Virus record (IMG/VR): IMGVR_UViG_3300025121_000749
From: a virus
Reading direction: 5' to 3' (one strand)
DNA length: 17,466 nucleotides
Position 1 is the stretch's first letter. The number at the start of each line of letters is the position of its first letter. The notes beneath the pieces are model-generated. The model made no database searches. It saw nothing but the letters and a program-made list of their open reading frames with translations, and had not been told where the DNA came from. Of the stretch, positions 7,821 through 8,959 are shown one piece after another. The position numbers were made by a program, and so were the translations under genes.

Positions 7821-8021
7821 ATGCGACACGTGTACTTCTGGGCGCTACCAATCGGTGAGAAGTTTGTTCACAAAGGTGAAGTGTATCAAAAGATCGAGGA
7901 CGAATACGTACTTGATCAACAAGGTAAACGTTGGGTCTTCGAGCCGCACTATGGATGTGTAATCACCGAAGAACAGTTCACTGAGCTTGGCTTAACCAAC
8001 GAGGCGATTAGACCACTATGA
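7821..8021 (+). CDS. hypothetical protein (66 aa)
   Basis: AGGAG SD sits 6 nt upstream. ATGA overlap with the downstream gene. Confidence 0.55.
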   Translation: MRHVYFWALPIGEKFVHKGEVYQKIEDEYVLDQQGKRWVFEPHYGCVITEEQFTELGLTNEAIRPL

Positions 8022-8959
8022 CCACACCCGCAGTTGTTCTTGGTCTTGGTATAGGTGACAGTCTTGGAATGCCCTTCGAGGTTCACGGTGACACAATACA
8101 CCCCAACCTCGAAACCTGGGATGGATCATTTCAGCCAGGAACACACCACAAGTTGCCTGCAGGCTGCTGGACAGACGATACCGAGATGGCTGTTGCCTTG
8201 GCAGAATCGTTGATTGCGCAGAAAGGTTACGATCCTGCCGATGCAGCCGCCCGTTATCTGGCTTGGTCACAAGCAACGCCACACGGCATGGGTGGAACGA
8301 CCAGAAGGGCAATGGCTGCTCTCGCATCGGGTAAGTCTTGGCAAGAAAGCGGTGTCGAGTTCGACGATCCTGTGAAGGTCGGCAACGGCACCGCGATGCG
8401 TGTTGCACCACTTGGTGTAGCCCATCCTCATATACCATCTTGTGTGGTCGCGTGCCGGCAAGACGCAGCCATCACGCATGCGCACCTTGAAGCAACTGCG
8501 GCTAGCTACGCCGTGGCGTTAAGTGTGTCTGCACTGAGTAACCACCACGTTCAGACTGACGGATCAGGACTTCTGCTAATCGCACAGGCGGCCTCACGTT
8601 GGAACTTGTCGCAGACAAAACTAAGCGAAGCCCTTGAACATGCTCGTAAACTCTTCGATCGTTGTGTAGAACCAGCACAAGCCATCGCAACACTCGGACG
8701 TCACGGCAATGCGATCGAAACCGTTGCATCAGCCCTCTACTGTGCGGCCTACCACATCAACGATTTCAGAGCAGGTGTCTGTGCAGCCGTACGCGGCGGT
8801 GGAGACACAGACACGCGTGGAGCGATCACAGGCGCACTCCTCGGAGCATATCTCGGACTTGAAGGTATTCCCGAGGAGTACATGTCTGGTGTGGCGCAAA
8901 GTGCTTATCTGCAAGAGTTGGATCGAAAACTTGTGGAGTTGAGAAATGTCAAAACGTAA
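8018..8959 (+). CDS. ADP-ribosylglycohydrolase family protein (ARH/DraG-like)
   Basis: Family signatures 'LGLGIGDSLGMPFE' (GDALG-like), 'GCWTDDTEMAVALAESL' (metal-binding TDDT) and C-terminal 'VRGGGDTDTRGAITGALLGAYLG'. Confidence 0.8.
   Translation: MTTPAVVLGLGIGDSLGMPFEVHGDTIHPNLETWDGSFQPGTHHKLPAGCWTDDTEMAVALAESLIAQKGYDPADAAARYLAWSQATPHGMGGTTRRAMAALASGKSWQESGVEFDDPVKVGNGTAMRVAPLGVAHPHIPSCVVACRQDAAITHAHLEATAASYAVALSVSALSNHHVQTDGSGLLLIAQAASRWNLSQTKLSEALEHARKLFDRCVEPAQAIATLGRHGNAIETVASALYCAAYHINDFRAGVCAAVRGGGDTDTRGAITGALLGAYLGLEGIPEEYMSGVAQSAYLQELDRKLVELRNVKT

Follow-up and report, generated by a model that had tools for sequence, protein, structure and literature searches.

Why would a bacteriophage carry an enzyme that removes ADP-ribose? 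The question is raised by a 17,466-nucleotide stretch of viral DNA (IMG/VR record IMGVR_UViG_3300025121_000749), which is analysed here as a whole and termed the window. The plus-strand open reading frame at positions 8018-8959 encodes a protein of the ADP-ribosylglycohydrolase (ARH) family, referred to below as the window ARH. ADP-ribosylation and the depletion of nicotinamide adenine dinucleotide (NAD+) are central weapons of bacterial immunity, and phage counters that have been shown by experiment are a macrodomain, NADAR and enzymes that rebuild NAD+. A first-pass annotation, made from the letters of the window, proposed the gene as a candidate counter-defence enzyme and remarked on a possible connection with the PARP of eukaryotic vaults. 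The present analysis suggests, with a probability of roughly 0.45, that the window ARH is an orphan eraser in a phage NAD+/ADP-ribose toolkit, aimed at ADP-ribosylation imposed by the host.

The ADP-ribosylglycohydrolase gene and its active site

The gene encodes 313 amino acids and has an ATG start and a TAA stop. Its features, in window coordinates, are the following.

8018-8959, plus strand: ARH/DraG-family ADP-ribosylglycohydrolase gene, 313 amino acids (Pfam, PHROG and PDB sequence matches, AlphaFold2 model, Foldseek)
8078-8080, plus strand: codon of Glu21, counterpart of the catalytic/metal-site Glu41 of ARH3 (opposite the Glu of the mouse ARH3 'avyE' segment; invariant)
8171-8182, plus strand: metal-binding motif T52-D53-D54-T55 (direct reading; pairs with the TDDT of ARH3)
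8474-8479, plus strand: T153-H154, the conserved 'TH' motif of the ARG/ARH domain (invariant in 48 homologues)
8798-8815, plus strand: second metal-binding motif, G261-G262-D263-T264-D265-T266 (direct reading; conservation)

The protein matches Pfam PF03747 (ADP_ribosyl_GH) over positions 2-287 of the 287-position profile, with E=1.1e-68 and 232.5 bits against a cut-off of 26.2. It also matches phrog_6572, 'ADP-ribosylglycohydrolase' (E=1.4e-41), and in the PDB its best sequence match is 2cwc (E 1e-28), with MJ1187, ARH3 and DraG also found. The first-pass annotation had assigned the gene to the ARH/DraG family from two metal-binding motifs, TDDT and GGDTDT; both are present, as T52-T55 and G261-T266, and the assignment is borne out by the profile match and by a confidently predicted fold. 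In an alignment of 48 homologues of 39-63% identity, residues E21, D53, D54, T55, T153, H154, D263, D265 and T266 are invariant, and so are G261 and G262 of the second motif. A phmmer alignment to mouse ARH3 places E21 and T52-T55 opposite the equivalent ARH3 residues. In human ARH3 numbering, the corresponding residues are E41, T76-T79, D314, D316 and T317.

An AlphaFold2 model built on the homologue alignment has a mean pLDDT of 96.9 and a pTM of 0.95. Foldseek searches with this model return MJ1187, the Thermus ARH-related protein, ARH3, DraG, Lmo0067 and Tri1, all with probability 1.00 and TM scores of 0.7-0.88. Profile, metal-site ligands together with the TH motif, and all-alpha fold all place the window ARH in the ARH/DraG superfamily (PF03747, the 'ARG' domain). 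Iyer, Burroughs, Anantharaman and Aravind (2022; PMC9503650) name the TH motif as catalytic in the ARG domain.

Purifying selection on the gene is indicated by a dN/dS of 0.16 against a 95%-identical copy (locus L009); the catalytic residues are all unchanged between the two copies. From motifs and model together, the window ARH can be securely predicted to be an intact ARH-fold hydrolase that would release ADP-ribose from a conjugate. Which conjugate is a separate matter. The match to ARH3 (E about 1e-19, 22-24% identity) is no better than that to DraG or MJ1187, and because ARH3, DraG, MJ1187 and the Thermus protein score alike, the ARH sequence alone does not separate N-glycosidic (Arg) from O-glycosidic (Ser/poly(ADP-ribose)) specificity.

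Two narrower assignments were considered and rejected. Membership in the DraG equivalog TIGR02662 fails at 103.3 bits against a cut-off of 337, and the Tri1-type immunity ARH model NF041672 fails at 81 bits against 490, with no adjacent ADP-ribosyltransferase effector found.

Phage origin and genomic setting

The window corresponds to positions 95,637-113,102 of a 243,706-bp groundwater contig (ENA ERZ909573 k127_311729), the longest of eight contigs from several groundwater samples that encode an identical ARH protein. IMG/VR holds a locus 95% identical to the window ARH locus. Upstream, on the opposite strand, is a replication module with a DNA polymerase A that has UDG and an intein, AAA_24, a PDDEXK nuclease and an SNF2 helicase. 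The length of the contig, the 95%-identical IMG/VR locus and the flanking, divergent replication module support a phage origin of the ARH gene, as the first-pass annotation had assumed. The window itself lies in a long single-strand run of mostly small open reading frames without assigned function, which starts after the replication module. In the 37 kb around the window no structural genes, no NAD+ salvage genes and no DraT or nif genes were seen. A megablast search of the whole window against GenBank phages gave no match, and a tRNA scan of the window flanks found none; a promoter/terminator scan for a transcription unit returned fewer sites than shuffled controls and is uninformative. The most plausible reading of the window is an accessory region of a jumbo phage whose genome has at least 244 kb.

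The DNA polymerase A of the replication module is 1,371 amino acids long and has UDG and LAGLIDADG (intein-type) domains (locus L169, 1-2076; about 85.7-87.7 kb on the contig). Its gene is transcribed divergently from the accessory block that contains the window.

A mostly phage-borne clade

Relatives of the window ARH number 2,788 in the protein database, the closest being 62-50% identical and found on metagenome contigs of up to 502 kb. IMG/VR has 371 related coding stretches. The best 80 of these 371 are mostly on viral contigs of 150-510 kb, and several genomes among them have two ARH copies approximately 30 kb apart. The best match in GenBank phages, at 48% identity, is in the 485-kb uncultured phage LR745208.1. 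Cellular relatives are more distant: in 185,579 prokaryotic species, with one genome each, the best is 40% identical and most are below 34%. In a neighbour-joining tree, the window ARH falls in a phage/metagenome clade whose sisters are two IMG/VR paralogue groups; bacterial metagenome-assembled genome (MAG) sequences lie outside. The window ARH belongs to a large, mostly phage-borne clade.

Many huge-phage genomes have such paralogue pairs, each copy with its own conserved synteny (L011/L030, L012/L036, L014/L035, L031/L034, L015/L040 and others). Group A paralogues adjoin genes of no assigned function, HNH, R2K ATP-grasp, RNase HII and a DnaJ-kinase. Group B paralogues adjoin NAMPT, an NMNAT-Nudix fusion, a UvrD helicase, Kelch, PTH2, Thg1 and an NAD-dependent ligase.

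The context of the closest cellular homologues is ordinary and gives no clue to a partner. In one Anaerolineales MAG, a 38%-identical ARH homologue directly follows the gene for a 948-amino acid DinG-like exonuclease-helicase (L091, 154-3965).

An orphan gene in a variable cassette

The genes closest to the window ARH on both sides bear on whether it has a partner. The following features are needed here.

7207-13470, plus strand: variable cassette of about 6.3 kb with the ARH, an NT5C nucleotidase, an FHA-YbaB protein and about ten small genes of no assigned function (missing in L189/L190)
7821-8021, plus strand: 66-amino acid open reading frame with a stop codon that overlaps the ARH start codon (ATGA); co-translation of the two is probable
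10974-11669, plus strand: HAD-superfamily 5'-nucleotidase, NT5C (Pfam PF06941, E=3.5e-11)
6202-6720, plus strand: YpsA-like SLOG protein, 172 amino acids from a GTG start, a predicted NAD+/ADP-ribose-derivative binding or processing domain (Pfam PF06908, E=2.6e-13, residues 3-152)
1537-1854, plus strand: DUF4326 protein of the rhodanese-phosphatase clade (PF14216 in precomputed annotation)

Loci L189/L190, which have a major vault protein gene 63% identical to that of the window, retain the order DUF4326, major vault protein, SLOG and the gene corresponding to 6671-7207. The next gene there, only 168 bp further on, is a homologue of 13471-13914. Because these flanking homologues are so close in L189/L190, the intervening 7207-13470 segment is taken as a variable cassette; the ARH gene within it is a dispensable accessory gene.

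No ADP-ribosyltransferase was found within 10 kb of the ARH in the window, in loci L007, L217, L218 and L219 or in the P0009 locus, which hold the closest relatives. An ADP-ribosyltransferase hidden among the cassette genes was also considered; Pfam, PHROGs, NCBIfam, PADLOC and PDB sequence searches, which took in the 207- and 178-amino acid proteins, found none, and distant transferase folds could escape such searches. The gene is therefore phage-borne and stand-alone, with no cognate toxin beside it, and has the properties of an orphan eraser.

The ATG of the ARH gene overlaps the TGA of the 66-amino acid reading frame at 7821-8021. This small frame was considered as a conserved ARH partner and rejected, as the reading frames upstream of homologous ARH genes are unrelated to it. 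On the other side, an uncalled 68-amino acid frame (8946-9152) overlaps the final 14 nucleotides of the ARH gene and takes up the 200 bp that separate the ARH from the next called gene. Its many Cys, His, Trp and Arg residues (CRWCW...C...HC) suggest that it may be a small zinc-ribbon protein. Within the cassette, 12491-13048 encodes a protein in which an FHA phosphopeptide-binding domain is fused to a YbaB/EbfC DNA-binding domain.

Three neighbours are further members of the ADP-ribose-processing vocabulary described by Iyer et al. (PMC9503650), namely the DUF4326, SLOG and NT5C proteins. That text describes bacterial ARG-centred systems that couple ARG to rhodanese-type phosphatases or HAD nucleotidases, and predicts that DUF4326 dephosphorylates ADP-ribose products. 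NT5C may possibly act downstream on ADP-ribose breakdown products; in the P0009 locus an NT5C gene is directly upstream of the ARH. DUF4326 is kept beside the major vault protein in L189/L190.

The automatic call of the SLOG gene (128 amino acids, start at 6334) cuts the domain short. The 172-amino acid frame from the GTG at 6202 is the correct gene, because the PF06908 match starts at residue 3. PADLOC gives this protein a weak match to a ShosA antitoxin model (2.3e-5). A 178-amino acid protein (6671-7207) overlaps the end of the SLOG gene, is kept with SLOG and the major vault protein in L189/L190 (53% identity), and may be a SLOG partner.

Neighbours of related ARH genes

Open reading frames of 83 ARH loci, 78 of them from IMG/VR, were clustered and the largest clusters annotated. 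Across these loci, the window neighbours recur beside ARH genes only where contigs are near-identical. The closest relatives (L007, L217, L218, L219 and the P0009 locus) are surrounded by small reading frames of no assigned function with no recurring partner, and sometimes have cpYpsA, RtcB, NT5C or HAD nearby. An Acb5 anti-CBASS gene is near the closest homologue of all (P0002, 62% identity).

Sister clades show a different company. An NMNAT-Nudix fusion is within 10 kb of the ARH at 25 of the 83 loci (median position -4.4 kb), NAMPT at 17 (median -3.8 kb) and an NAD-dependent DNA ligase at 14. In L023 a Nudix reading frame adjoins the ARH. RNA-repair-type genes, namely Thg1, PTH2, RNA ligase and RNase HII, are also near ARH loci. 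NAMPT and NMNAT together constitute the NARP2 counter-defence pathway. The NAD+ salvage links represent few independent events, because the sister paralogue groups are largely syntenic; the links still span more than one group.

This raises the question of whether the enzyme acts on small molecules. It may hydrolyse soluble ADP-ribose derivatives, such as O-acetyl-ADP-ribose, ribose-ribose-linked cyclic ADP-ribose isomers, His-ADP-ribose or other immune signals and by-products, and supply ADP-ribose for Nudix cleavage and the rebuilding of NAD+, so that NAD+-derived signals would be blunted or the NAD+ economy of the phage supported. The tight linkage to NMNAT-Nudix and NAMPT in sister clades is consistent with such a role. 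PMC9503650 predicts soluble ADP-ribose derivatives as the targets of SLOG and DUF4326, both of which the window encodes, and says that ARH3 hydrolyses O-acetyl-ADP-ribose. The same text argues from phyletic patterns that ARG domains prefer macromolecular ADP-ribose conjugates. In addition, a literature search for a link between ARH3, gcADPR and phage found none, and the 37 kb around the window lacks NAD+ salvage genes, as described above. A soluble substrate as the principal one is judged unlikely.

The proposed role

The reading to which we give a probability of roughly 0.45, an eraser of host-imposed ADP-ribosylation, is favoured because the gene is an orphan, lies in a dispensable cassette, belongs to a largely phage-restricted and often duplicated group, and keeps company with NAD+ salvage and ADP-ribose-processing genes. 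Its enzymatic activity, a macromolecular substrate and the counter-defence role are what we infer from these properties. The enzyme, divalent-metal-dependent, would cleave the bond at C1'' of an ADP-ribosyl conjugate and yield free ADP-ribose. In this way it would undo the ADP-ribosylation of phage or host macromolecules, most probably of proteins, by the transferases of host defences or toxins. The freed ADP-ribose might then pass to Nudix, phosphatase and nucleotidase enzymes, and to the NAD+ salvage enzymes carried by such phages, for breakdown or recycling.

Several points weigh against the proposal. Neither a substrate nor a target defence system was found for the window ARH, and no PADLOC v2 model matches it. 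The searchable literature yielded no characterised ARH-family phage anti-defence protein, nor any experimentally tested ARH-fold phage enzyme. The NAD+ salvage neighbours are in sister clades of about 40% identity, largely in two syntenic groups, and are seen neither in the window nor beside the closest relatives. Finally, the phage has a PARP of its own, which is an internal source of ARH substrate. The suggestion of the first-pass annotation that the gene is a counter-defence candidate therefore holds in part: the orphan state, the variable cassette, the SLOG, DUF4326 and NT5C neighbours, relatives beside NAD+ salvage genes and the AdfN/AdfM precedent discussed below speak for it, and the absence of a matching PADLOC model, as well as the exclusion from DraG and Tri1, speak against it.

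If this ARH clade turns out to consist of anti-defence erasers, the phage arsenal would gain a third hydrolase fold, and the clade would serve as a pointer to the host transferases that are countered.

A PARP encoded by the same phage

The contig that contains the window also encodes a protein (P0124) with WGR, PARP_reg and PARP domains, at 40,343-41,770 (locus L220, 10001-11428), approximately 62 kb from the ARH. In the same block are two RtcB genes, an ATP-dependent DNA ligase, an RNA ligase, RlaP, a Metallophos protein and two AcrVA2-like genes. A search with the PARP encoded near the P0002 ARH (see below) found 299 relatives, P0124 among them; most are 60-80% identical, with many on contigs of 100-220 kb. 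The H-Y-E triad (H352, Y386, E456) is invariant in the PARP alignments. In another locus (L227, 9537-10001), a SLOG homologue 55% identical to that of the window directly adjoins the PARP gene.

The PARP offers an alternative that the first-pass annotation did not contain: the phage WGR-PARP may be the source of the ADP-ribose, and the ARH may erase its products, as ARH3 does for PARP1/2 in eukaryotes. The PARP, encoded among DNA/RNA ligase and repair genes, would modify itself or targets at nucleic-acid breaks, and the ARH would remove ADP-ribose or poly(ADP-ribose), reset the system and recover ADP-ribose. An intact triad on the same contig as the ARH agrees with this, as do the fold and catalytic residues that the window ARH has in common with ARH3, a hydrolase of poly(ADP-ribose) and Ser-linked ADP-ribose. 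Other phages provide closer pairs. The P0002 ARH (62% identity, locus L008) is 5.7 kb downstream of a 480-amino acid WGR-PARP_reg-PARP gene, and in L078/L171 a PARP is 4-6 kb from ARH genes. The 595-kb phage LR756511.1 has a full ARH (Pfam 1e-52) 4-6 kb from a WGR-PARP, with an ATP DNA ligase in between. The distance is 15.6 kb on the L033/L172 contig, and both genes are found on contig IMGVR_UViG_3300037067_020703. The PARP-linked ARH genes of L008, L078/L171 and LR756511.1 belong to different ARH clades.

These pairs are infrequent. A PARP is within 10 kb at two of 83 ARH loci, and an ARH within 10 kb at one of 80 PARP loci, to which L008 and LR756511.1 can be added. When the best 120 relatives of each protein are compared by the length of their contigs, only two contigs are common to both lists. 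In the window genome the two genes are in different blocks, approximately 62 kb apart, and the PARP, conserved at 60-80% on many contigs of 100-220 kb, differs in this respect from an ARH that resides in a dispensable cassette. Writer and eraser thus occupy one genome, and their linkage is not conserved. As a general rule PARP-ARH linkage is weak; on the ARH side there is a modest enrichment, relative to a rough prior for huge phages. Resetting of the phage PARP is the main alternative to the role proposed above, though on the unlikely side. If it were the function, giant phages would run a complete ADP-ribosylation cycle of writer, eraser and salvage, as eukaryotic cells do.

The major vault protein homologue

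The third question concerns the vault. The first-pass annotation noted that eukaryotic vaults contain a PARP and that the ARH is in a block with a major vault protein (MVP) gene. The window feature, which is given as context only, is as follows.

2346-4994, plus strand: MVP homologue, 876-882 amino acids (MVP_shoulder, E=3.1e-29; Vault_3, E=3.3e-11; PDB MVP chains, E=3e-19)

From these domain matches the protein can be taken as a true, full-length MVP homologue. Phage MVPs have been reported once, in a 2023 preprint; IMG/VR has at least 29 phage MVP loci. A PARP is near the MVP in three distinct huge phages, at 1.4 kb in L192, 7 kb in L177/L199 and approximately 6 kb in L200. GenBank record LR756500.1 shows the same MVP-PARP arrangement as L200, and between its two genes are an RNA ligase, an HD-AAA_33 protein and an AAA ATPase. 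The MVP-PARP spans are listed below.

L192, 7280-12436: MVP-PARP span
L177, 362-11422: MVP-PARP span
L223 (LR756500.1), 5905-15872: MVP-PARP span

Three GenBank phage records have an MVP. One of them also has a PARP, 6 kb off; the other two also have an ARH and are apparently one genome deposited twice. MVP and ARH occur together in LR756501.1 and L316. An ARH within 10 kb of an MVP is seen in the window's phage species only, among 27 IMG/VR MVP loci. In the flanks of 80 metagenome MVP loci, a PARP occurs once or twice, an ARH once, NAMPT three times, NMNAT-Nudix once and DUF4326 twice. No common partner emerged when 95 reading frames next to MVP genes were surveyed with Pfam; the neighbours are heterogeneous.

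The shoulder of human MVP binds NAD+ and ADP-ribose, and vaults hold PARP4 and TEP1, an NADase. In a single phmmer alignment, the window MVP has T, T, N, L, E and D opposite the human pocket residues R507, P508, H509, R511, P565 and K573; those opposite R507, H509, R511 and K573 are T539, N541, L543 and D599. No TEP1/TROVE or MINT-like element was seen. The MVP was considered as an ADP-ribose-binding partner of the ARH and rejected, on the grounds that the pocket residues are not conserved, the neighbours are heterogeneous and the MVP-ARH adjacency is not conserved.

One may still imagine that the ARH is part of a vault-like phage assembly, in which an MVP shell, PARP and ARH would cooperate physically and make up an enclosed system for ADP-ribosylation. 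The three genes are in one genome, MVP and PARP are 1.4-7 kb apart in L192, L177/L199 and LR756500.1/L200, MVP and ARH are found together in LR756501.1 and L316, and human vaults provide the model of an NAD+/ADP-ribose-binding shell with PARP4 and the TEP1 NADase. Set against this are the restriction of MVP-ARH adjacency to one phage species among the 27 IMG/VR MVP loci and to one of the 80 metagenome MVP loci, the mixed neighbours, the human pocket residues that are not kept and the failure to see a TEP1/TROVE or MINT-like element. A physical assembly of this kind is highly improbable. The broader picture is a huge-phage lineage with a vault-like ADP-ribosylation system, in which an MVP shell, a WGR-PARP writer, ARH erasers and SLOG/DUF4326 processors fed by NAD+ salvage, perhaps compartmented, would run or shield NAD+/ADP-ribose chemistry during infection; this too is very unlikely. 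If it were true, viruses of prokaryotes would offer a counterpart to, or the root of, the eukaryotic pairing of MVP with PARP4.

The vault and PARP connection made by the first-pass annotation can be divided accordingly. MVP and PARP are indeed in one genome, and they are adjacent in three other huge phages; the MVP-ARH adjacency is confined to this species, and the pocket residues of human MVP are not conserved in the phage MVP. The association of MVP with PARP in huge phages looks real but sparse, and an association of MVP with ARH beyond co-residence is not supported. Recurrent MVP-PARP neighbourhoods in huge phages merit separate study, given the recent evidence for ADP-ribose binding by vaults.

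A 158-amino acid protein (5116-5592) is encoded directly after the MVP and matches phrog_11227, annotated as 'protease' (3e-47). Visual inspection suggests a hydrophobic helix at the N-terminus and, towards the C-terminus, a resemblance to SPFH/band-7 proteins.

The eraser role preferred here, the resetting of the phage PARP, the hydrolysis of soluble metabolites and a role in a vault are not mutually exclusive.

Comparison with known ARH enzymes and erasers

The nearest proteins by sequence and by structure are the Thermus thermophilus ARH-related protein 2cwc, the best sequence match (E 1e-28; TM score 0.84), and Methanocaldococcus MJ1187 (1t5j), the best structural match (TM score 0.88). 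Both are 27-32% identical to the window ARH. Their entry titles name no substrate, and so they are no guide to specificity.

ARH3 (ADPRS/ADPRHL2), the eukaryotic hydrolase of Ser-linked ADP-ribose, poly(ADP-ribose) and O-acetyl-ADP-ribose, has the same all-helical ARH fold (Foldseek TM scores 0.79-0.84) and the same site of Glu, TDDT and DxDT with the TH motif. It differs in that identity is 22-24%, and the window ARH is approximately 35-50 residues shorter and is viral, not cellular. DraG and the immunity ARHs Tri1 and Lmo0067 have the family and the metal site in common with the window ARH. They erase Arg-linked ADP-ribose made by a cognate transferase (DraT, Tre1 and the Lmo ADP-ribosyltransferase, respectively), whereas the window ARH has no cognate transferase or nitrogenase context within 10 kb.

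The window ARH is of the same class as the jumbo-phage ARG domains of Iyer et al. (2022), which PMC9503650 describes as stand-alone and found in large caudoviruses; phrog_6572, matched by the window ARH, is of this class. ARG domains are reported there in approximately 5% of jumbo phages. ARH/ARG proteins of jumbo phages have thus already been catalogued and functionally predicted, and the window ARH adds to a known class. Its identity to proteins in GenBank phage records does not exceed 48%, which sets it apart from the catalogued domains. The accessible parts of PMC9503650 and related literature contain no description that we could find of the size and phage-specificity of the ARH clade, the paralogue pairs, the NAMPT/NMNAT-Nudix linkage, the co-residence with WGR-PARP or the MVP-PARP neighbourhoods.

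The closest parallels in proposed logic are with erasers that act against DarT. In DarHTG, a DarT system, the antitoxin DarG3 is described as resembling archaeal and eukaryotic ADP-ribosylglycohydrolases (PMC13069673), a likeness given by reported structural similarity alone. The orphan antitoxin-like phage erasers AdfN (NADAR) and AdfM/Tk.4 (macrodomain) neutralise DarT. Their folds are unlike that of the window ARH. The logic proposed for the window ARH is the same as theirs: a stand-alone phage protein that would remove ADP-ribose and thereby undo the work of a host transferase.

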